Shown one piece after another: positions 1,047 to 63,980 of a stretch of DNA of 64,000 nucleotides. The notes beneath the pieces were generated by a model. The model was not told the origin of the DNA, made no database searches, and saw nothing but the letters and a program-made list of their open reading frames with translations. The DNA is from a virus: positions 1 through 64,000 of IMG/VR virus record IMGVR_UViG_3300031758_000022; one strand, given 5' to 3'. Each line of letters begins with the position of its first letter. The first letter of the stretch is position 1. The translations under genes and the position numbers were made by a program.

Positions 1047-3050
1047 ATGAAAAAAGACATTTTAAAAACAGCGGGTGTAAGATCTGAGAAAGAGTTTTAC
1101 AAAAAATACCCTACAGAAGAGGCGTTTATAGCGGCTCATCCTGACTTTGCTAATAAAATGCAAATGGGGGGAACAAGAGAAGCCTTTCCTCAAACTGCCA
1201 CTATGGATAATTTTTTTAGTTACGGTGTTCCGGCACCTCCTAATTACTTAGCACATGGTGGTATGCCACATGCTTTTCCACAGGCACAAACAGAATCTCA
1301 ATTCTTTATTCCTATTTATACTGATGTTTATAATCCGTATAACAAACAACAAGGTGGTTCTATGCCTGAGATGTTTCCACAAGTAGGAAATGTTGAATAT
1401 CAACCACCTGCAAATATGTGGTTTCAAGAAGGAGGGGAGCCGCTAGAAGAAGTAGGTGTTCAAAACCGTCTTGGCAAATTCATGGCTCAAATAGGAGGAA
1501 GAGCTGCTACAGCTGCTAATAAGCAAGTAGGTCAGTCTGCTATGGGTATGATGAGAGCTGGTGGTAATTTATCTAAGTATGATCCTGGTGGTAGTATAGC
1601 TCCTGGTAAATATAAATCAGTAAGTGACTTTGTAACACAAAATCCTTTAGATGCTTATACTGGTACGCAGTTTCAATATGATCCTGCCTATGGAGATGCT
1701 TTTGCAAAGTACATAGATAGTATGTACCGTGATTATTATGAGTTAGATCCGGATCATGCTGTATATAAAGATGATCCTATTTATAAGCAATTATCAGAAG
1801 CTTATGGTTATAAAGGAAAACCTACAAATACTTCTACTTCTACTCCTAAGTATGATCTTAATCAATTGGCTTCAGATAGAACTTCTAGAGGTAGAGGTCC
1901 TGTTAAATCTAAGGGTTGGGTAAATGGTGAATTTGGTAGAGGTCGTAACAATGACTATATGTGGCAAACAATGTTTAACACAGATAACTTTGCTGAGGCT
2001 CAAAGACTTGCTGCTGAAACAGGTTTAAGAATTGATGAAGGTAAAGCGGGACTATTAGGAAGAAGAAAAAAATATACCTATGACTGGGGTAATCAACCTG
2101 TCCCTGGTGCTACTGATCCAAACAAATCATCTTCTCAAACTACCTCTCAAACTACCTCTCAAACCACTTCTGATCAAACTTCTGAAACGGCTTCTGATAA
2201 TTCACAGCAAGGTCCAGGCAGACCTAAAAGAAACTTTTTTGGTAGGCCTGATACAGATTCTAGATGGAATCCTGAAAATAAAGCTAGATTCCCTAGCTCT
2301 AAAGTAAAAAATGCAGAGTTTCCTATGGGTGAAAGTACATTTGAAACAGCGGGTTATAAAGATGTTAATCGTAACTCTGATTTTAGAAACTGGAGAGCTA
2401 CAGAAAGGCTTAATAGAATAGGTGAGCGTCTTGATAAAAATTATCAAAGAGAGGAAGGTCTTAATACACTTTATGGAACAGAAATGTCCAATAGAATGGA
2501 AAGACTTAGAAATAGAGATACAAGAAGGTTTAACAGAATAGCAGATAGATTTGATAGAGATGAGTATACAGCTCCCGTTTTCCCTTCTCTTCCTACTCAA
2601 GCTTATGGCGGTGTTCCTATGGCTAAATGGGGACTTGATACAGATCATAACCGAATAATTGAAAAAGGTATGGGATCTGATCCAAACTATAACCACATAA
2701 TTGAAAAAGATGCATGGTGGGATAGAGCTGCTGAAGATTATGGAGGAGAAGAAAATTTCTACCAGCGTCAGATGAAAAAAGGTATTGCAACAGATATCTT
2801 TAATATGAATCAACCTGACTTTAATACATATATTGAAGACATGTATCCTGCACCTGGTACAAGCCGCGGTACATTTGATGTTCTTAATAATAACAATATG
2901 CCTTATAAAAATAATTATGCTGTGAAGGATGACTTTGCACCAGGTTTTAAGGCAGGTGGTAATTATAGAAAAGGTGATGTAATATATTGGGATGAAGATA
3001 CTATTAATGCTTTTATTCAAGCAGGCGGCCAAGTTGAATACCTTGATTAA
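1047..3050 (+). CDS. Putative internal virion (cargo) protein, low complexity, with GG-motif repeats
   Basis: Long ORF; ATG 1047 lies just after the upstream stop and is preferred over GTG 1005; about 9 GG motifs; position upstream of the giant ejected-protein genes. Confidence 0.65.
   Translation: MKKDILKTAGVRSEKEFYKKYPTEEAFIAAHPDFANKMQMGGTREAFPQTATMDNFFSYGVPAPPNYLAHGGMPHAFPQAQTESQFFIPIYTDVYNPYNKQQGGSMPEMFPQVGNVEYQPPANMWFQEGGEPLEEVGVQNRLGKFMAQIGGRAATAANKQVGQSAMGMMRAGGNLSKYDPGGSIAPGKYKSVSDFVTQNPLDAYTGTQFQYDPAYGDAFAKYIDSMYRDYYELDPDHAVYKDDPIYKQLSEAYGYKGKPTNTSTSTPKYDLNQLASDRTSRGRGPVKSKGWVNGEFGRGRNNDYMWQTMFNTDNFAEAQRLAAETGLRIDEGKAGLLGRRKKYTYDWGNQPVPGATDPNKSSSQTTSQTTSQTTSDQTSETASDNSQQGPGRPKRNFFGRPDTDSRWNPENKARFPSSKVKNAEFPMGESTFETAGYKDVNRNSDFRNWRATERLNRIGERLDKNYQREEGLNTLYGTEMSNRMERLRNRDTRRFNRIADRFDRDEYTAPVFPSLPTQAYGGVPMAKWGLDTDHNRIIEKGMGSDPNYNHIIEKDAWWDRAAEDYGGEENFYQRQMKKGIATDIFNMNQPDFNTYIEDMYPAPGTSRGTFDVLNNNNMPYKNNYAVKDDFAPGFKAGGNYRKGDVIYWDEDTINAFIQAGGQVEYLD
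2131..2170 (+). repeat. 12-bp tandem repeat encoding SQTT x3
   Basis: tctcaaactacc tctcaaactacc tctcaaaccact; protein reads SSQTTSQTTSQTTS. Confidence 0.85.
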
Positions 3051-3062: not shown

Positions 3063-5276
3063 ATGAAGAAAATTAAAATAGTAGGACTACCTAAAATGGT
3101 TTATGGTGGGAGAGCCTTTAATCAGGTAGCTCCTAATGCCATTCCTAATCATATGAATGAAGCACCTCTTAAGGTAAATGATACTTTAAAATCTGTACCA
3201 AGAGAATTAGCAAATTTAGAAGCAGAAAAAGGAGAGACGGCATTTATTCCTAATCTAAATGGTATGTCTGCCCATTATAAAATTGGTGGTAAAAGGCATA
3301 GTGAAGGAGGAACACCTCTTAATCTTCCAGATGATTCTTTTATTTTTAGTGATACTAGGAGCATGACTCTTAAAGATAAGGATTTGCTTCAACAATTTGG
3401 AGAATCAAAACCTAAAACTTATGCTGAAATTGCTAAGAAGTATGACATAAATAAGTACAGAAAGGTTTTAGCAGATAAGGACTCAGATGTTATTGAAAAG
3501 AAGACAGCTGAGAAAATGATTGAGAATTATAACATGATGTTAGGCAAGCTTGCTTTGACACAAGAAAGTCAAAAAGGATTTCCACAAGGAATTCCTTTTA
3601 TAGCACAGCCTTATATGATGATGAATAATATCAATCCAGAAGATATTCTTCCACAGCAAAAGCAGGAGCAGGAGCAGGCACCAGAGCAGCAACAAGAAAT
3701 GCCAGCTGAAATGCCTCCACAAATGCCACAAGCTAGATATGGAGGTATGAGAGCAGTAAGGATTAAAGGTCTGCCTAGATATCAAGATGGTGCAGGAGTG
3801 CTAAGTCCTGAGGCTCTGGATGCTATGGCTCGTGAACAAGCTTCTGCTGAAGAAAAAGCTGCAAGAGAAAAGTTAGCAGAACTTTATGCTACTGCGGCAC
3901 TTGCAGAAGCAAAAGCTAAGTCTAGTGCTGCTTTAGAAAATAGTAAAGCAGCTAATACTAAAACTGCTACTACTACTAAAGGTACTACTAAATCTAAACC
4001 TACTGGAGGTTATAATCCTGATAGATCTAGAGCAGAGACCTATGATTATGTACAAGCTTTTCTTGATGCTTATGTAAAAGCTGCTGAGTCAGGAGCATTT
4101 GTTCCTGAGTTACCTAGTACTTATACAGCAGGCAATGCTGATGTTAGATCTAGACAAGCTGTTCAATCATCAATCTCTGGTCAAACAAATGTATACGGTG
4201 ATCCAGAAGTTCTTAATGAAGCAGATTTTAAAAAGAGACATGCATGGTACTTTAAGAATAAACCTAAATGGGATAAGAATAATCCTGCAGATGTAGGGGA
4301 TTTCCAAAAATCATATAATGCCAAAGCTAAAGAATACGGATTACCTGAATACTTTACATTAGACGGTCCTCAAGGAACTAGATTAGATTCTAAGTTTGGT
4401 GAGCATACTTGGTCTGCACCAGGATTTAATACTCCTGCTAAAAAACCAGCGGCTGCTGCTGAAAAACCTAAAACAGACGTTACTCCTTTAGAAGAGATTG
4501 ATGTAGAAGCACCTCCTGTATATAATCCTTTTGAGTACTATCCACAGGATACTTTGAATCTTGCTACAGCAATGGCTGCACAGATTCCTGATATGAAGAC
4601 TTTTTATGCACCGGTTCAACTTCAAGGTTGGGATCCAGCATACATAAAGGAAGATTACAGTCCTATTATGGAAGCAGCTAATATTGCTACACAGGGTGTT
4701 ACAAGTTTTGGTACTAGACAAGGTGCTGATGCATCTTTATCTAAGATTCAAGGCCAAGCTTCTAGATCTGCTGCAGACCATAATTTGCAGGTTGCTAATA
4801 TGAATATTGGTATCTACAATGATGCTGAGAAGTATAACTCACAAGTACAAGCTAAAAACATAGAGTATAACAATGCTCTTAAAATGGCTGACTTTGATGC
4901 AAGACAACTGTATGCGGCTGATAGACTTAAAGCTAAGAATAAGAAGAGAGCTGAAGTAGCTAATCTATTTAACAATAGACTTACTAATGCTACAGATACT
5001 TATAATCTAAACTTGACTAGTCCTTACTTTAAAATATTCCCTGGTAGCGGGGGTGCTGCTGTATTGACTAATCCTGAGATACTTAAACCTAACAAGGATG
5101 CGTATGCTTCTCAAGCTATCAGAGAATTTAATATGTGGAAAAATGCATACCCAGATTTATCAGATGAGGCTATTCTGAGTTATCTTGCACGCTCTAAAAG
5201 TGCTGGGCAAGTACCAGAAAACCAATATTATAATCCTTATGATGTGTCTGTTGGTCCTTACGGTGGCGGGCAATAA
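3063..5276 (+). CDS. crAss-like virion protein (EAEKGE...GKRHSEGG...FIFSD N-terminal domain)
   Basis: 737-aa ORF; N-terminal motif set recalled from crAss-like structural/cargo proteins; GG motifs MVYGG and ARYGG. Confidence 0.6.
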   Translation: MKKIKIVGLPKMVYGGRAFNQVAPNAIPNHMNEAPLKVNDTLKSVPRELANLEAEKGETAFIPNLNGMSAHYKIGGKRHSEGGTPLNLPDDSFIFSDTRSMTLKDKDLLQQFGESKPKTYAEIAKKYDINKYRKVLADKDSDVIEKKTAEKMIENYNMMLGKLALTQESQKGFPQGIPFIAQPYMMMNNINPEDILPQQKQEQEQAPEQQQEMPAEMPPQMPQARYGGMRAVRIKGLPRYQDGAGVLSPEALDAMAREQASAEEKAAREKLAELYATAALAEAKAKSSAALENSKAANTKTATTTKGTTKSKPTGGYNPDRSRAETYDYVQAFLDAYVKAAESGAFVPELPSTYTAGNADVRSRQAVQSSISGQTNVYGDPEVLNEADFKKRHAWYFKNKPKWDKNNPADVGDFQKSYNAKAKEYGLPEYFTLDGPQGTRLDSKFGEHTWSAPGFNTPAKKPAAAAEKPKTDVTPLEEIDVEAPPVYNPFEYYPQDTLNLATAMAAQIPDMKTFYAPVQLQGWDPAYIKEDYSPIMEAANIATQGVTSFGTRQGADASLSKIQGQASRSAADHNLQVANMNIGIYNDAEKYNSQVQAKNIEYNNALKMADFDARQLYAADRLKAKNKKRAEVANLFNNRLTNATDTYNLNLTSPYFKIFPGSGGAAVLTNPEILKPNKDAYASQAIREFNMWKNAYPDLSDEAILSYLARSKSAGQVPENQYYNPYDVSVGPYGGGQ

Positions 5277-39818: not shown

Positions 39819-41018
39819 TTATTGAACTGTTAATTTTACAATTTCTGGATCAAGAAGTAGTTTTTGGAACTTAGTCCTGTTACCTGAAATGATTGTTTTG
39901 ATAATTACATAGTGTAAATCAAGGGTGAATAGCTTCTCAGACTTCATGATATTTTTAATTCTATCTAGAATTTTATCATTGATGCTATTACCATTAGAAT
40001 GAACAACTGCATAGTTACTAAAACGGGTTGCCATTAAGCTAGCAATATCAGCTCTATAACCGGATGAGTCATTCATACTACTATGTAACTTTGTCTCAAC
40101 ACTATCCCAATTAGCATCCAAAAGTATATCATGAGGAGATATCAAAATATCTAACTTATTGGCAATGAATGTAGTAAACATTGAAGTAAACTCTTCACCT
40201 ACACTACCTTCACCAATCATCTGAATAATTCTCAAATTATCCTCAAATGATTTAATGGAGCTTATAGAATTAAAGAAAGTAGTTATACTCCTAGGATTAA
40301 TATCTCCACTTACTAGTTCAGGATTCATTAGTAAGAAGTTAATACATCTGCTGTCAACCTTATTTTCTTCTGCCCATCTTGCCCAACACTTAATATCAAA
40401 CTCAAGATGAGTGGTAATAAATCTGGTTCTTTGAGCTTTGTCAATACTGTTTACTAGATACTCACCGTTATCAGGATTAGAGGTTAGTACTATGTGCCAG
40501 TCTTTAGGTAGTTTCCAAGAGATGTACTCTTGTCTATCTATTACCTCCATTACTGCTTGAACAAAGCGTAGATCAGCTCTAGTCCAGTCATCCAAAATTA
40601 GAATACCACCCTCTTCTTTGCCTTGAATCCATTCTGGCGCAGCATGTGTCATTCTTTTCTCACCTGTAGGTTTGTACCCACTAGAAATATACATTGGCAT
40701 AGTAGACTCGGTAACCCATTTAACTAGTGTTTCTGAATCTTTTGTCTTAATCATCTCATGCTCTTTCATAGGATAACCTACAAGGTCACCTAGCTCCTCA
40801 ATGTGGCTCAAATTGAGCTTTATACATTGTAGATTGAGCTCTTCTGCAATTTGGAGAATAGTGCTAGTCTTGCCAAGACCTGCTTCTCCCTCAATATTTA
40901 TAGCAACTGGTTTCTTACCTTGCCCTTGAATATGCCTATTATTTTCAATCATGTGCTTAATGAAATCCTTAAGCTCATCAGTGTTCAAATTTACATGTGC
41001 GTGTGTTTTCTTTGACAT
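39819..41018 (-). CDS. MoxR-like AAA+ ATPase
   Basis: Walker A GEAGLGKT, Walker B ILILDD, TSNP sensor, DKAQRTRF, NPRS. Confidence 0.85.
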   Translation of the reverse strand: MSKKTHAHVNLNTDELKDFIKHMIENNRHIQGQGKKPVAINIEGEAGLGKTSTILQIAEELNLQCIKLNLSHIEELGDLVGYPMKEHEMIKTKDSETLVKWVTESTMPMYISSGYKPTGEKRMTHAAPEWIQGKEEGGILILDDWTRADLRFVQAVMEVIDRQEYISWKLPKDWHIVLTSNPDNGEYLVNSIDKAQRTRFITTHLEFDIKCWARWAEENKVDSRCINFLLMNPELVSGDINPRSITTFFNSISSIKSFEDNLRIIQMIGEGSVGEEFTSMFTTFIANKLDILISPHDILLDANWDSVETKLHSSMNDSSGYRADIASLMATRFSNYAVVHSNGNSINDKILDRIKNIMKSEKLFTLDLHYVIIKTIISGNRTKFQKLLLDPEIVKLTVQ

Positions 41019-51020: not shown

Positions 51021-51052
51021 AAAAAAAAGAGGGATGTTACTCCCTCTTTTTT
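51021..51052. terminator. Intrinsic terminator
   Basis: AAAAAAAGAGGGA-TGTTAC-TCCCTCTTTTTT. Confidence 0.8.
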
Positions 51053-52403
51053 ATTGAAATTCGGATTTTACAACATTGTTAATAAGCATACTAATAGCCT
51101 CAGGAGCTTTAGACATTTCTGTAACAACAGTATTGTATTTGTACAACTCTTGAACTCCAGTATAGTTAAAACCTATACCGCAAGCTACAAAACCGTCCCT
51201 TTTGCATTTTTCAACAATTCTCTTTAAATCATCACGGTCTGAAGAGCTTCCATATCTGTAACCTGCAGGTTGACCATCAGAAATTACAATGAAAAGAATG
51301 TTCTTATCAGTATAAGATCTAATTTTGTCATAGATATTGTCAATAACAGGACCATCATAATTCTCTAAAAAGTTTACTCTATTTTGACGAGCATAAGCTT
51401 TTTCAAAAATCTGGTTGTACTTGTCATTATATACATGAATTTCAGGAACATTACCACCTGTATGACCATATATATAAATGTCTTTAGGATCCATTACTTG
51501 AGAGAATGTCAAATAAAGCATTTTTGTAATACTGTGTTGGCTATCTCTATAACCAGAATAGTCCATACTACCACTCTCATCATTTAGAATGCAAACACTA
51601 AAAGGCTTAGTTCTATCATGAAGCTCTTTTCTAAAATTGATAAGATGATTTCCTGCTATTGCCTCAGCAATTTTAGGAATATCTATTTTACCAGTTCTTA
51701 GATTAGTAATTTTAGTCTCATCCTGATCAAAAGAAATATCAAGAAGATTTAACAGTTTTTCAGAGTTTTTTACTTCATTGGAATTATAATGATGTTCACT
51801 CTCCTGCTCAGACATAACCTTAAATGTAGTATTCTTTTTAAGATCTTCATAACAGCTAGAACTAGATTTATAGTCACCCCATATATTAGAACGAGTTTGC
51901 TTCTCAACAGAATTTATTTCACTTCTTAAAAAATCCTTAGTTGATTTACCTATAGACAAATAGTCTTCAGTATCCTCATCTTTTAAGGAAAATTTATAAG
52001 TAATTGTTGAATTACTTATCAAATTACTATAATTAGTAAATAATGAAGAAAGCTCCTTTTCATTCTTTATGATACCTCTTAAACAAGCTTTTACAGATTC
52101 TTTATTAAAAGTGTAAACAATACTTGATCTATATACACCATATCCATAGAAATTGTCTACTTTTTCTGCTTTACAAGATTCTAAAAATGTATCTTGATAA
52201 CCGTATTTGTTAACAGCATTGATAAAAACAGCTAGTAGCTTCTTTTCAGAATAAGGACTAATATATTGAGATTTATCTCCCGCTGTAATGTTAAAACCAT
52301 AAGGCATTTTCATTTCAGGAAGATCCCATAAAAGCTGGGAAAACCCTCCAAAATCGGAGGATTCCCAGCCACTTTTACTAAAAAACTTTTTTACTTTACC
52401 CAT
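51051..52403 (-). CDS. vWA domain protein (CobT/NorD-like C-terminus)
   Basis: RTGKID, MIDAS DESGSM, NYDG, VISDGQP, GIG. Confidence 0.82.
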   Translation of the reverse strand: MGKVKKFFSKSGWESSDFGGFSQLLWDLPEMKMPYGFNITAGDKSQYISPYSEKKLLAVFINAVNKYGYQDTFLESCKAEKVDNFYGYGVYRSSIVYTFNKESVKACLRGIIKNEKELSSLFTNYSNLISNSTITYKFSLKDEDTEDYLSIGKSTKDFLRSEINSVEKQTRSNIWGDYKSSSSCYEDLKKNTTFKVMSEQESEHHYNSNEVKNSEKLLNLLDISFDQDETKITNLRTGKIDIPKIAEAIAGNHLINFRKELHDRTKPFSVCILNDESGSMDYSGYRDSQHSITKMLYLTFSQVMDPKDIYIYGHTGGNVPEIHVYNDKYNQIFEKAYARQNRVNFLENYDGPVIDNIYDKIRSYTDKNILFIVISDGQPAGYRYGSSSDRDDLKRIVEKCKRDGFVACGIGFNYTGVQELYKYNTVVTEMSKAPEAISMLINNVVKSEFQ

Positions 52404-52430: not shown

Positions 52431-53501
52431 TTACTTTTTATAAGGGTTGATTATACTAGAGACAGCATCTATTCCTGCTTTTCCTCCAATACCCTTACAC
52501 GTAGCATAATATGCATCATAGATTGTGAAGCCATTAGCTACCATAGAAGTAATCATTTTCAAGTGTCTCATTGACAAATTGAAATTGATAACAAATTGCT
52601 CATGCTGAACATTAATAGCAAAGAATATATCTACAATACTAGAATAGTTTTCTTTACTAACTGTGTCTTTGAAGACATTTTCTAGTACGTATTTACAACC
52701 TTCAGCATTCAAAGGCTCAATCTCCAAGATCATAAATCTGTCAATCAAAGCTTTGTCAAGTTTGTGAGTACCTGTGTACTGACTACCTGTATTTGCTGTA
52801 GCTACAAACACACAATCAGGATGAATCTTAATTGGTGAATAGTCCTCAAAAGAATACTCCATTGGAAGTTCTCTTCTAAAGTCAAGACAAGGGAACAACA
52901 AGTTGTTAGAACCTGCTGCAGCACGAGACAACTCATCAAGAACTACAATCCCAGGTTTTTGAATTACCTCTGAGAATCTTGATTTCTTAAATTCACTACT
53001 TGTAACTCCATCTTTTACAGTGATTGCGTGAGTACCAATCAAAGACATGATAGGGTCTGTCATAGTACCCATATCAAATACAGTATAATCCATTTTTAAA
53101 GATTGCGCTATTGCAGCAATCATCTCAGTCTTACCTACACCGGTAGGACCCAATAACATAGTATTTACCTTGTTCTTGATATTATGAGAAAGCATCTTTG
53201 AGATACCTTTTTCAATCAAAAACCCATTAACAGCTTGATAAATCTTAGGTGCTGCGGCTGTTGTTTTTAATGTAGCAGTTAGTGTTTCTGAATCTATCAC
53301 AGATTCTATCACAGAGTCTTTAATAGTAGGTGGTGTTTTTGCTGCTTCAGCTGCTTCTCTTGCTTCCATCATTTCTTTTTTTGTTCTACGTTTTCTTTTT
53401 ACTTTTAATAATTCTGCTCTTAATAATTCTTCAGTACTTTCTAGTCTACCTATTTCAATAGTTGCATCTTTGAAGAATTCTTCAATAGTTTCTGGTTCCA
53501 T
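52431..53501 (-). CDS. MoxR/CbbQ/NorQ-like AAA+ ATPase
   Basis: GPTGVGKT, VVLDELSR, ATAN.G..Y.GT..LDKALIDRF, SMR. Confidence 0.88.
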   Translation of the reverse strand: MEPETIEEFFKDATIEIGRLESTEELLRAELLKVKRKRRTKKEMMEAREAAEAAKTPPTIKDSVIESVIDSETLTATLKTTAAAPKIYQAVNGFLIEKGISKMLSHNIKNKVNTMLLGPTGVGKTEMIAAIAQSLKMDYTVFDMGTMTDPIMSLIGTHAITVKDGVTSSEFKKSRFSEVIQKPGIVVLDELSRAAAGSNNLLFPCLDFRRELPMEYSFEDYSPIKIHPDCVFVATANTGSQYTGTHKLDKALIDRFMILEIEPLNAEGCKYVLENVFKDTVSKENYSSIVDIFFAINVQHEQFVINFNLSMRHLKMITSMVANGFTIYDAYYATCKGIGGKAGIDAVSSIINPYKK

Positions 53502-53560: not shown

Positions 53561-54682
53561 CTAAACGTTTATGTATTTGATTTTACTTTGGTCAAATACT
53601 GCTAATGCAGATTTGGTCCAGTTCTCATCTACAGTACCTCTGTAACATAAAACGTGAATTACTGCCTTTTCTGTAGGATTTAATCTTAACATCCTACCAA
53701 TTCTCTGACTAGATTTTCTTTCATTGCCATATGCATGCATAATGATTCCTTGTTTTAAGTCAGGTATATTTACACCTTCACTTAATTGTAGTACTGCTGA
53801 GAGTTTAGGAATTATGCCGGCTTTAAACTTTAAAAGATTTTCTTCAGAATCTTTGTTACCACTATAGTAACTGTGTCTACATAGTCTATTAGCTTGGTTC
53901 TGAGTATTAGCAAACAAGATGCATTTATCAGATATAGAATTAAAAAGTTTTTCAGCATATACTTCTTTTGAAGGATACTCCATCATAGCTTTCATTCTTT
54001 GAATTCTGAGCATCATAGTTTCTTTTATAAAACTAGAATTATCAATTCTATCACACCAATACACATAGGATTCTACCTCTGATGTAGGCCACTTCTTATA
54101 CTTATTTCCTACCATTACATTCTTCATTTTTCCTAGAGGAAGTAAATGAACAATGATCTCATAGTCATTAAGAATACCATCTCCTACGGCATCATCTACT
54201 AAATACTCATATACCATAGGGCAATAAGTATTTACCATTTTACCTTTTTCAGATGTGACAAACTTAGGAGGAGTCCCTGTTAAGCCAATTATACCACCAG
54301 AAAATTTTGATAAACAAGGAGAATGAGATTCAAGAAGATTGTGACACTCATCAAGATAGATTACATCATAGACACTTAAGTCCTTTTTACAAAGAGATAA
54401 GTAAGTAGTGTAATCTATATTGTCAGATAACCAAGACATATTATGCTTAGTAATCTCATCTTTCCAGGAATTCCAAATAGATTTTTTAGGCGCTACTACT
54501 AAGGCCTTTATACTAGAACCATAGTATATATTAAGACTGTTCAAGTGTTTAAGACCTATTAAAGTCTTTCCTACTCCCATACTTACTGCAACACCTGCTC
54601 TATTTTTAATACCTAAAGCTGCTAATGCTTCAGCTTGTATTTCATCTTTAGTCTTCTTCATTCTCTTGAGTTCTTGTTTCAT
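53561..54682 (-). CDS. Superfamily 2 (DExH) helicase
   Basis: MGVGKT, LDECH, GLTGT, EGVNIP, QRIGR. Confidence 0.88.
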   Translation of the reverse strand: MKQELKRMKKTKDEIQAEALAALGIKNRAGVAVSMGVGKTLIGLKHLNSLNIYYGSSIKALVVAPKKSIWNSWKDEITKHNMSWLSDNIDYTTYLSLCKKDLSVYDVIYLDECHNLLESHSPCLSKFSGGIIGLTGTPPKFVTSEKGKMVNTYCPMVYEYLVDDAVGDGILNDYEIIVHLLPLGKMKNVMVGNKYKKWPTSEVESYVYWCDRIDNSSFIKETMMLRIQRMKAMMEYPSKEVYAEKLFNSISDKCILFANTQNQANRLCRHSYYSGNKDSEENLLKFKAGIIPKLSAVLQLSEGVNIPDLKQGIIMHAYGNERKSSQRIGRMLRLNPTEKAVIHVLCYRGTVDENWTKSALAVFDQSKIKYINV

Positions 54683-58990: not shown

Positions 58991-59082
58991 TTGTTCCCTA
59001 TACAAGATTTGAACTTGTATCCTACCATAAGGTAGATGTTACTCTCAATGCCAGTATTTATTCCTGGTTACACCAATAGGGA
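58991..59082 (-). ncRNA. tRNA-like RNA 1 (non-canonical anticodon arm, expanded D-loop)
   Basis: Acceptor TCCCTAT/ATAGGGA; TGGTGTAA; T-arm ACAAG-TTCAAAT-CTTGT; CTACC-TTAT-GGTAG in the anticodon position. Confidence 0.7.
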
Positions 59083-61817: not shown

Positions 61818-62546
61818 TCAATAGTCTTTATAAGTTTTGTGTAGCAGATTCAAAAGATATCCCGTATCATGAGGAATTCTTTCAAAATCACTACTGCTCT
61901 TGAGAGCATTAATCATTCTGTTGTGATCATACTTGCTACCAAGAGATCTATAAACAGAACAAAAAGCTGTATGAAATTTATTACTATTGGTTTTAACAAC
62001 AGAACTTGCTTCAATCAGATTTTTTGTAAGTACTTCAGAATCAGGCATATTTACTGTGAAATTACCATTTCTAATAGAAGTTAGACCTCTACCTGATGTA
62101 GCAGATCCTCCAAGAATGCTAGCAGAAATTGCTACAGAAAGACCATTTTTGATAAAATGTTCCTTAAGTCTAAAGTAATTCTCATTACCAAGACCACAAT
62201 ATGCATTAACATAATCTGTCAATGTCCATTTTTGTTGAACATTATTCAGAGTAGCCATCATATCCACAATTGTTGATACAGAATCTGTTTCAACAACAAT
62301 ACAGTGTACTTTTTTAATACGCAATCTCTTAAGAGATTCAACCAAGTGCTGACCATCAACATTGTAATACTCAGCCTTACCAGTAATTGCTGTAGTATAT
62401 GCAAGAACAGGAGTTCTTAATATACCTACACGGGCAATTGATTTTACTAGTGCTTGGACATGTTTTTCATTTTTTGCTCTATTGAAAGTAAGCTCCTTGA
62501 TTTTATCAACAGCTATTTCAACAAATTTGTGCTTAGAAAATTCCAT
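61818..62546 (-). CDS. ParB/Srx N-terminal-like domain protein
   Basis: NR...HVQALVKSI...P....VDGQHL...LN..Q.KW. Confidence 0.72.
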   Translation of the reverse strand: MEFSKHKFVEIAVDKIKELTFNRAKNEKHVQALVKSIARVGILRTPVLAYTTAITGKAEYYNVDGQHLVESLKRLRIKKVHCIVVETDSVSTIVDMMATLNNVQQKWTLTDYVNAYCGLGNENYFRLKEHFIKNGLSVAISASILGGSATSGRGLTSIRNGNFTVNMPDSEVLTKNLIEASSVVKTNSNKFHTAFCSVYRSLGSKYDHNRMINALKSSSDFERIPHDTGYLLNLLHKTYKDY

Positions 62547-62585
62547 TTGTGTTTTACTTTTTGTGTTTTCTTAATTTAAATAGTA

Positions 62586-62624
62586 ATAAAAATAAGGGGA
62601 CCGGATGTTTCACCGGTCCCTTAT
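62586..62624 (-). terminator. Intrinsic terminator downstream of the candidate ncRNA
   Basis: Minus strand: ATAAGGGACCGG-TGAAACAT-CCGGTCCCCTTATTTTT. Confidence 0.8.
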
Positions 62625-62637
62625 GGCATCACGTAGA

Positions 62638-63138
62638 GCTTGAGAGAAAGTATTAGAACACCCTAACATTATACATGTTAGGACATAAACAGTGCAATAT
62701 TCTATACGAGTGTTAGGCATCTCAGCCAATTCCCTCCAATACTACAGTATACTTGTTCTCTACTGGTCACAAAGAGACCGTCCAATACCTCCATATAAAA
62801 ATAGGAAAGGGTACACCTTCTTACCGACACTTCATTTTTCCAGGAAAACCTGTCCAAAAACTTATTAATTAATACTTTAGAACATTACAGGATAAAACAT
62901 CCCTTTACTGTTGTTAAACATTAATCAACATTACATACTTCCTATGTATTGTTCTTGCATAAAAAATCCACATCAAACTGCTACCTTTTCATTATGTTCT
63001 TCACGCCAGAGGTTTAGCAGCCTCAGCCCTAAACGTACAGAATAATATAATAACTACTAGGATATTAGCTGGCTTTTCTTATACTTTGCGTAGTAGGCAT
63101 TTATGAGTGTAAGTCTTTCAATACACTGCCTCTCAAGC
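62638..63138 (-). ncRNA. Candidate large (~500 nt) structured non-coding RNA
   Basis: No ORF >=60 aa; 9-bp terminal inverted repeat GCTTGAGAG/CTCTCAAGC; at least 10 internal helices; followed by a terminator. Confidence 0.6.
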
Positions 63139-63143
63139 AATTA

Positions 63144-63980
63144 TTATAACTCCAGAGTTTTTAACTTCTCTGGTATGTCAATGTTATAATGCATTTTAAC
63201 ATGTTTACAGCTTTCATGATAATGAATAGTACTACAACCGCAGTTATGACCTTTTTCAAAATGTGTAGCAAAGTGTAAATCATAGTCTTTAGGGATATCA
63301 CCCCATGCACCACCACATCCTTGACTTAAAACAAGAACCTTTTTTCCCTTAGGTACTAATTTTTTAATATGGCCTAAGTAGTAATTCAGATCATCTCCTG
63401 AAGGTAAACCTTTAGAACTGATACATAATCTACTGCCATAATAAATCTTAACACCTTTGATCTTTTTAGCTTCTTCAATCAATGTTCTATGAAACCCTTT
63501 ATCAAGGCTATTGTAACCAACTGATTCATCTACAAATAGATAAAGCTCTTGTTTGGTTTCAACAGTCATCTTCTTTTCATATAAAGCAAGATGAGGTTCT
63601 GATAGTAATTTCTTGAACACACGCGGATAATTAAGCTTATCTTCAATAAGAAATTCAACCTTTGATAGTCTGATTAATTCTCTTTTGATTAAAGCTCTTT
63701 TATTCTCTGCATCTACTTTGGTAGAATCCATTCCTTTACCTCTTGATTTGCTAGGATTTTCTTTACTCTTAGCAGGTTGAGGTTTTTTAACAGATTTTTT
63801 CTGAGAAGGATTCTCTTTTCTTAACCTAGTAGCTACGCTTTGTAGCACCTCCGGACTGAGATCATTAACAGAATCAGGAGACACATTATACTCTTTACCT
63901 TTATAAGTATGAGTAAAACTTTTACTTTCTGATTTCATATAATAATCATCAAAAAGTTGTTGTTGTCTAAAATGTGGCAT
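63144..63980 (-). CDS. Hypothetical protein with a degenerate vWA-like motif
   Basis: LYLFVDESVG (MIDAS-like), VLVLSQG; 278 aa. Confidence 0.6.
   Translation of the reverse strand: MPHFRQQQLFDDYYMKSESKSFTHTYKGKEYNVSPDSVNDLSPEVLQSVATRLRKENPSQKKSVKKPQPAKSKENPSKSRGKGMDSTKVDAENKRALIKRELIRLSKVEFLIEDKLNYPRVFKKLLSEPHLALYEKKMTVETKQELYLFVDESVGYNSLDKGFHRTLIEEAKKIKGVKIYYGSRLCISSKGLPSGDDLNYYLGHIKKLVPKGKKVLVLSQGCGGAWGDIPKDYDLHFATHFEKGHNCGCSTIHYHESCKHVKMHYNIDIPEKLKTLEL

Follow-up and report, generated by a model that had tools for sequence, protein, structure and literature searches.

The DNA analyzed here, hereafter the window, is a stretch of 64,000 nucleotides (positions 1 to 64,000) of the IMG/VR virus record IMGVR_UViG_3300031758_000022. 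Its longest stretch without an open reading frame (ORF) of at least 60 amino acids (aa) spans 597 bp, at 62547-63143, and the runner-up measures 217 bp; a previous sequence-only reading of the window had picked out the same gap, at about 600 bp, as the longest without genes. On the minus strand, the gap lies between the gene for a 278-aa protein (p278; 63980-63144), which terminates in a double TAA, and a ParB-like gene, whose ORF starts at 62546. The noncoding element within it, as probably transcribed, begins with the base that follows the double stop codon and runs to the T-run of an intrinsic terminator (62588-63143, minus strand), as judged by the absence of ORFs, by homologs, and by covariation; its structured core occupies 62638-63138. 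The element is about 510 nt long in the window, against 470-600 nt for its relatives. We consider it highly probable that the gap encodes a large structured noncoding RNA (ncRNA) of a class not described before, found in about 30 uncultured freshwater phages.

Each of the six reading frames of the gap contains 8-19 stops, with TAA, TAG, and TGA all present. Because stops of all three kinds occur in every frame, a recoded gene is excluded. No conserved ORF was found across the gap homologs, and those of loci L016, L022, and L023 have no ORF reaching 25 aa on either strand. With stops in every frame and no conserved ORF, the element is noncoding. A 60-aa ORF, on one strand or the other, overlaps the stretch in L019, L021, L039, L042, L043, and L046, and the element is still present in these loci.

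A conserved element behind a protein cassette

A search of viral contigs with the single p278 sequence gave nothing, whereas an alignment of 29 homologs of the protein, drawn from a large protein collection at 31-89% identity (alignment A1), succeeded as a query and retrieved 5 viral and 26 metagenome loci, 31 in total. The p278 gene always precedes the element. Two blocks of sequence appear in the same order in all 31 loci, namely the near-invariant block A (AAUGCCUACUACGCG; AAAUGCCUACUACGCA in the window, 63086-63101) and block B (GGUAUUGGACGGUCUCUU; 62772-62789), both recognized by pattern search and alignment. Block C (AAUAUUGCAC; 62692-62701) is found in 29 of the 29 loci whose sequence extends far enough, the other two ending earlier. 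The spacing across loci is 200-312 nt from A to B and 88-241 nt from B to C, and an invariant GUGAU lies 469-604 nt from the stop codon. Most loci with enough downstream DNA have about 500-740 bp free of ORFs after the 278-aa gene.

The element of L021 is 94% identical to that of the window, and the remaining loci share islands of sequence. The 20-mer AGGUAUUGGACGGUCUCUUU of block B is 100% identical in many loci, against only about 50% identity for the adjacent protein, so that, by this comparison of sequences, the RNA element is more conserved than the neighboring protein. No match to the gap was found by BLASTN in 50,697 GenBank phages, nor was there a tblastn match in GenBank phages to p278 or the AAA+ protein described below.

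Two short patterns were tried and set aside as markers. The bare 18-mer pattern of block B proved unspecific, with 25 of 29 viral matches lacking blocks A and C; among these matches are coding stretches that resemble Walker A (GPPGIGKSL) and a motif that recurs and is probably coding. A 20-mer of block C gave 2 matches in 185,579 species genomes; neither comes with A, B, or the protein, and chance would yield about that many.

Wherever upstream DNA suffices, the gene order is p60, p207, a 287-aa AAA+ ATPase, p278, the RNA, and the terminator, a fixed protein cassette that had gone unnoticed in the sequence-only reading. Across loci, the ATPase shows about 76% identity, and its top Pfam match is AAA_5 (1e-13, above the cut-off), placing it in the MoxR/dynein-type branch. 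The terminator follows the element in the alignment and was confirmed by scanning in the window, L025, L039, and L016, whose stems are unrelated to each other; in the window it is a hairpin of 8 bp, 7 of them G-C, followed by a T-run (62620-62597, minus strand), which confirms the strong terminator noted behind the terminal stem in the sequence-only reading. Two near-complete relatives (119.6 and 113.2 kb), searched as whole records, lack the RNA, p278, and the AAA+ gene. Because these three are absent together, the cassette and its RNA are an accessory module.

The genes that come after the RNA vary, being ParB-like in some loci and ORFs of 155, 65, or 100 aa in others. The ParB-like gene of the window (61818-62546, minus strand; PHROG 12305, E 6e-13) is therefore not part of the element. 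The same variation bears on whether the RNA could be a leader, riboswitch, or attenuator that governs the downstream gene via the terminator. In the window, a structured RNA and a terminator do sit just upstream of the ParB-like gene; across loci, however, it is the upstream gene that stays constant and the downstream gene that differs. As the element is also several-fold larger than known riboswitches, we regard a leader as very improbable.

Comparative structure of the element

To describe the fold, we used an alignment of 24 distinct sequences (alignment A2) and a model of 113 pairs obtained from RNAalifold with raised covariance weight. Plain RNAalifold on the concatenated alignment gave doubtful long-range pairs; a covariation scan and the higher covariance weight were needed, and the scan brought out long-range nested helices that could not have been seen by eye in one sequence. 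Controls were made by sliding the pairing partners and by 500 shuffles. In the full model, 90.5% of cells are paired (37-49% when slid), 60 pairs show changes on both sides (23-35 when slid), and the covariation score is 0.311 (at most 0.105 when slid), a value reached by none of the 500 shuffles. For the core, defined as helices P1-P4 and P6-P9 with 59 pairs, the corresponding figures are 92.3% (40-47%), 36 pairs (14-21), and 0.371 (at most 0.119), again with 0 of 500 shuffles reaching the observed value. Thus, compensatory base changes keep the helices across diverged genomes, and the signal is unusually clear for only about 30 sequences. Collecting homologs and looking for covariation had been put forward as a check on the structured RNA, and the 31 loci and 36 double-changed core pairs come down on its side.

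The paired columns also show from which strand the RNA is read, as they contain 369 G·U or U·G cells and only 49 A·C or C·A cells. This excess marks the minus strand as sense and fits only a single-stranded transcript. The same ratio speaks to the idea that the region acts as DNA, such as a replication origin, a parS centromere, or a packaging site, which the position of a noncoding region next to a ParB-like gene might suggest; an origin had been named beforehand as a finding that would overturn the RNA. The helices conserve pairing and not sequence, however, and the 369:49 ratio implies one transcribed strand. Within the element region we found no iterons or meaningful direct repeats, only short two-copy repeats, and no turn in GC skew. 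Loci L002-L009, related phages found via the downstream ParB-like gene, have that gene with no DNA similar to the element, no gap, and no 278-aa gene. A DNA element is, in our judgment, scarcely credible.

The core is closed by P1, in which GCUUGAGAG (63138-63130) is the perfect complement of CUCUCAAGC (62646-62638; this and all following positions are on the minus strand). A lone perfect 9-bp inverted repeat in about 750 bp is close to chance expectation; we nonetheless take P1 to be real because its homologs show changes on both sides, in 8 of 11 aligned pairs, and the terminal stem drawn in the sequence-only reading is thereby upheld. Within P1, the long-range helix P2 joins GUGUAUU (63126-63120) to 62753-62747, in the AAGUAUAC region. 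P2 was found by the covariation scan, has double changes in 8 of 11 aligned pairs and 93% of cells paired, and also occurs in the unconstrained minimum free energy (MFE) structure. Next come P3, CUUAC (63113-63109) with GUAGAG (62763-62758) and one bulged A, and P4, UCAUAAA (63106-63100) with UUUGUGA (62773-62767). P3 is the weakest core helix; it reads GUCUUUUA/UAAAAGAC in other lineages, and in A2, where the window row is out of register, it is 77% paired with 3 double-changed pairs. P4 is 96% paired, with double changes in 5 of 7 pairs. Because the window row on A2 is one column out of register in both P1 and P3, the measured support for these helices is lowered.

Between blocks A and B lies a lineage-variable domain (62790-63085), whose length of about 295 nt in the window compares with about 185 nt in most other lineages. 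P5, GUAUAAGAA/UUUUUAUAU (63084-63076 with 62801-62793), closes this domain and is the equivalent of a 12-bp helix in the L025 group. Three of the hairpins of the domain had been drawn in the sequence-only reading and recur in a second lineage: GUUUAG/CUAAAC, which becomes GUUGUG/CACAAC; GAAGG/CCUUU, which becomes GAGGG/CCCUU; and GGAU/AUCC, which is retained.

The second arm opens with P6, GUAUUGGA (62742-62735) paired with UCUAAUAC (62657-62650), in which 100% of cells are paired and 6 of 8 pairs are double-changed. Inside it, P7, GGG/CUC (62734-62732 with 62710-62708; 91% paired), encloses the P8 hairpin, GGC and GCC around a UGAGAU loop (62727-62725 with 62718-62716), which is 100% paired across lineages that spell it GGU/ACC, AGU/GCU, GGC/GCC, or AGC/GCU. 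Block C, unpaired in the model, is followed by the P9 hairpin, CCUAACAU and AUGUUAGG around a GUAUA loop (62682-62675 with 62669-62662), a helix already proposed from the single sequence that is 96% paired and carries compensatory changes. A second variable domain, about 150 nt, is inserted at the P7/P8 region in other lineages; the large insertion thus falls between blocks A and B in the window lineage and between P8 and block C in most others. Between P1 and the terminator lies a GUGAU(G) tail (62627-62632) of invariant columns in A2.

The remaining interior helices drawn by eye fared less well, and about a third of the whole set turned out to be wrong. GGCA/UGCC enclosing AGUGUA/UACACU, together with GGUC/GACC, gives only 58% paired cells against 25-48% when slid, and the 5' AGUGUA strand belongs instead to P2; for CUACUA/UAGUAG, other lineages show no conserved partner. 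The helices AGAACAU/AUGUUCU, UACAUA/UAUGUA, UGUU/AACA, and CAGG/CCUG occur only in the window and its 94%-identical relative. The unconstrained MFE structure of the window sequence already includes P1, P2, P4, P6, P8, and P9, and forcing all of the comparative helices on this sequence costs 1 kcal/mol.

Blocks A and B could form a large conserved internal loop or pair irregularly, with tertiary or protein contacts as an alternative; they probably pair in part. Support for A/B pairing comes from a single co-change (C-G to U-A) shared by three near-identical sequences, and among the conserved blocks covariation brought out no pseudoknot.

Several points weigh against reading the gap as a structured RNA. 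The element is known here from DNA sequence alone. The structure and the counts of its pairs come from one and the same alignment, and the 24 sequences are related, many of them from one lineage, so the cell counts overstate the number of independent events. Blocks A and B vary too little for covariation to inform on their pairing. A comparison of folding energy with shuffles, also put forward as a check, came out mildly in favor of structure (z = -2.19 on the minus strand) and did not separate the strands, the plus strand scoring no worse (z = -2.52). With an inverted repeat near chance expectation and a weak folding z, the sequence of the window by itself does not establish an RNA. What carries the claim of a large structured RNA of several domains, with a terminal stem closing it, is the combination of homologs in 31 loci, covariation, G·U excess, and a terminator on the sense strand.

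Relation to known RNAs and to the cassette proteins

We compared the element with the 4227 models of Rfam 15. Nothing in the whole window reached the gathering score; at E<=10, positions 62450-63250 gave noise only, the best match scoring 24.8 bits against a cut-off of 60, and ROOL (RF03087), GOLLD (RF01998), and OLE (RF00110) gave no match there. The element in 25 homolog loci likewise has no Rfam match (16 loci searched at gathering score and 9 at E<=1), tRNAs being the only matches. Neither the window nor these loci match the Rfam 15 models of RNase P RNA, tmRNA, group I/II introns, 6S, Y RNA, or known ribozymes, and ARAGORN found only a tRNA-Leu(GAG) at 58993-59082 in the window and no tmRNA. 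We found no description of the element in the literature; a survey of candidate structured RNAs in IMG/VR gives motifs of only 29-151 nt (PMC10690425). The earlier suggestion of a possibly new class is thus borne out against Rfam 15. Large ornate phage RNAs as such are already known; this family matches no described one and differs by its tie to a protein cassette.

The RNA had been likened in the sequence-only reading to ROOL and GOLLD, a comparison that is sound as to a large phage-borne RNA and otherwise one of analogy. Like them, the element is a large, multidomain, ornate phage ncRNA; the function of ROOL and GOLLD is unknown, both often lie near tRNA genes, and GOLLD comes from lake metagenomes. 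PMC12286853 describes GOLLD and ROOL as forming homo-oligomeric complexes. The element might correspondingly be a self-assembling, RNA-only multimer with a cassette that is merely coinherited, and its size, ornate fold, carriage by phages, origin in lake metagenomes, and tRNA genes 0.6-1.6 kb away are traits it has in common with GOLLD and ROOL. It has, however, no covariance-model, sequence, or structure match to either, is shorter than GOLLD, and always directly follows a gene of an AAA+/VWA-like cassette, a fixed place after one gene that is not a described feature of ROOL or GOLLD. We consider an RNA-only multimer unlikely.

Size, invariant unpaired nucleotides in a conserved fold, and the need for release from a polycistronic transcript would also suit a ribozyme, either self-processing or otherwise catalytic. 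No Rfam ribozyme family matches the element, however, and an HDV-like match at E 5.1 (14.9 bits) is noise, which leaves catalysis improbable.

Two other RNAs offer parallels in gene context. OLE, at about 600 nt, combines a complex fold with unpaired blocks that are highly conserved, is encoded beside the genes of its partner proteins, and works as a ribonucleoprotein (RNP). It differs in being a chromosomal RNA of extremophilic or anaerobic Bacillota with unrelated Oap partners, and an RNP is only inferred for the element described here. The bacterial Y RNAs of Ro60 (Rsr), whose modules also occur in phages, are closed by pairing of their 5' and 3' ends and are encoded beside the gene of a VWA-domain protein. 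Y RNAs are 100-200 nt, however, the element gives no match to the Y RNA model, and p278 lacks the TROVE ring, the RNA-binding part of Ro60.

The p278 protein has no match in Pfam, PHROG, NCBIfam, or PADLOC, and when the A1 profile was searched against the sequences of solved structures, nothing meaningful came up. Its C-terminal domain carries invariant QGCGG, HFxTHF, and CGC motifs. In the predicted model (predicted local distance difference test score, pLDDT, 83.6), an N-terminal domain is connected by a disordered, basic, Lys/Pro-rich linker (residues 62-82) to a C-terminal alpha/beta domain. Structural comparison gave weak, mixed matches (Foldseek E about 0.01, VIA Z 6-7), which repeatedly include VWA domains, namely those of NorD (of the NorQ complex), TFIIH p44, Rpn10, and VWF-A; the VWA domains of a phage Ro60 and Deinococcus Rsr are also among them (Z 6.7 and 6.4). 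A protein-atlas lead to DUF2201 is sub-threshold, at 0.88.

A gene for an AAA_5-type ATPase followed directly by one for a possibly VWA-like partner resembles the MoxR AAA+/VWA pairs NorQ/NorD, CobS/CobT, and RavA/ViaA. To our knowledge, a dedicated large RNA has been reported for none of the described MoxR/VWA pairs. Large phages are known to carry pairs of this sort (PMC7824862). The window itself contains a second pair of AAA+/VWA type at 51051-52403 and 52431-53501 (both minus strand), whose PHROGs are CobT-like and CobS-like ("porphyrin biosynthesis"), and a third MoxR-like ATPase at 39819-41018.

On the favored account, the RNA is read from the minus strand; it would start only a few bases past the stop codon of p278 and probably be cotranscribed with the cassette operon up to the intrinsic terminator. 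In the comparative model, P1 opens into a three-way junction. One arm is a long irregular stem, P2-P3-P4-P5, with blocks A and B in its internal loops and the lineage-specific domain at its tip; the other comprises P6-P9 with invariant block C and, in other lineages, the second inserted domain. The GUGAU tail and the three invariant unpaired blocks may serve as tertiary or protein contacts.

A rival to this account is a cis-acting 3' untranslated region (UTR) of the cassette mRNA, one that would protect the message from 3' exonucleases or control expression of the cassette and would involve no separate functional RNA. The element starts 5 nt after the stop codon and ends at the terminator of the operon, and scans of the window and three other lineages gave no convincing conserved promoter in front of it. 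The terminator hairpin would stabilize the mRNA by itself, however, and known 3' stabilizers need far less than 500 nt in which a three-way junction and three invariant unpaired blocks are combined with lineage-specific swaps of domains around a constant core. We judge a 3' UTR role to be decidedly unlikely.

We favor an RNA that would act in trans, folded within an RNP together with the cassette proteins, the AAA_5/MoxR-type AAA+ ATPase, the VWA-like p278, or both. Adjacency and the basic linker of p278 suggest such a partnership, which we put forward tentatively. On the other side of the balance, the RNP idea has gene adjacency for its sole footing, and no RNA-binding domain has been identified. 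The VWA-like matches of p278 are also weak (Z 6-7) and tied with many Rossmann-like and unrelated alpha/beta folds, and the DxSxS motif of the metal ion-dependent adhesion site (MIDAS) is not conserved, D151 being invariant and the serines not. More doubtful still is the specific proposal that the RNA is a subunit or substrate of a phage RNP machine, which a MoxR-type AAA+ protein and a VWA-like adaptor load or remodel or in which they are scaffolded by the RNA, or else that it is a new natural ribozyme.

Bacteria and phages are known to have few classes of large RNA with a complex fold, among them the rRNAs, RNase P, tmRNA, group I/II introns, OLE, GOLLD, ROOL, HEARO, and raiA, and each has yielded new biochemistry or, recently, unexpected RNA-only cages. 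The design of the present element is modular, with one core and different domains inserted at two sites. Unlike GOLLD and ROOL, it comes with a fixed set of partner protein genes, which offers a direct experimental handle. If the proposed partnership is correct, it would be the first hint of a MoxR/VWA-type chaperone pair working with RNA and the first RNA-linked MoxR/VWA system.

Neighboring genes and further observations

Gene order differs around the cassette. In related phages, a helicase-like gene of 373 aa stands directly before the ParB-like gene; in the window it lies about 8 kb away (53567-54652, minus strand), and the 362-aa gene upstream of the ParB-like gene in L002-L009 maps to this same position. 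The displacement indicates that the local gene order has been rearranged around the cassette.

Genes for tRNA occur on both sides of the module. A tRNA-Arg(UCU) gene is found 0.6-1.6 kb downstream of the RNA in L017, L020, L025-L027, L029, L036, L038, and L046; in its stead the window has the tRNA-Leu(GAG) gene at 58993-59082. Upstream of the cassette, L078, which is the same genome about 2 kb past the end of the window, has a tRNA gene at 1971-2043 (minus strand; 47.8 bits with the Rfam tRNA model), for which ARAGORN reports a defective anticodon loop ("tt"). Its counterpart in L021 (936-1009, plus strand) has an extra loop A and reads as anticodon UUA, of the ochre-suppressor type. The two genes differ by a single-base indel in an A/T run and by one other base, and the loop difference may be an assembly error or a real variant.

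The same minus-strand gene block contains more ORF-free gaps of 300-500 bp, at L078:2912-3409, 3939-4327, and 4728-5033; over those 8 kb of L078, only the tRNA reached the Rfam gathering score. Elsewhere in the window, three consecutive giant ORFs of 2154, 3679, and 2352 aa occupy 8580-33160 on the plus strand.

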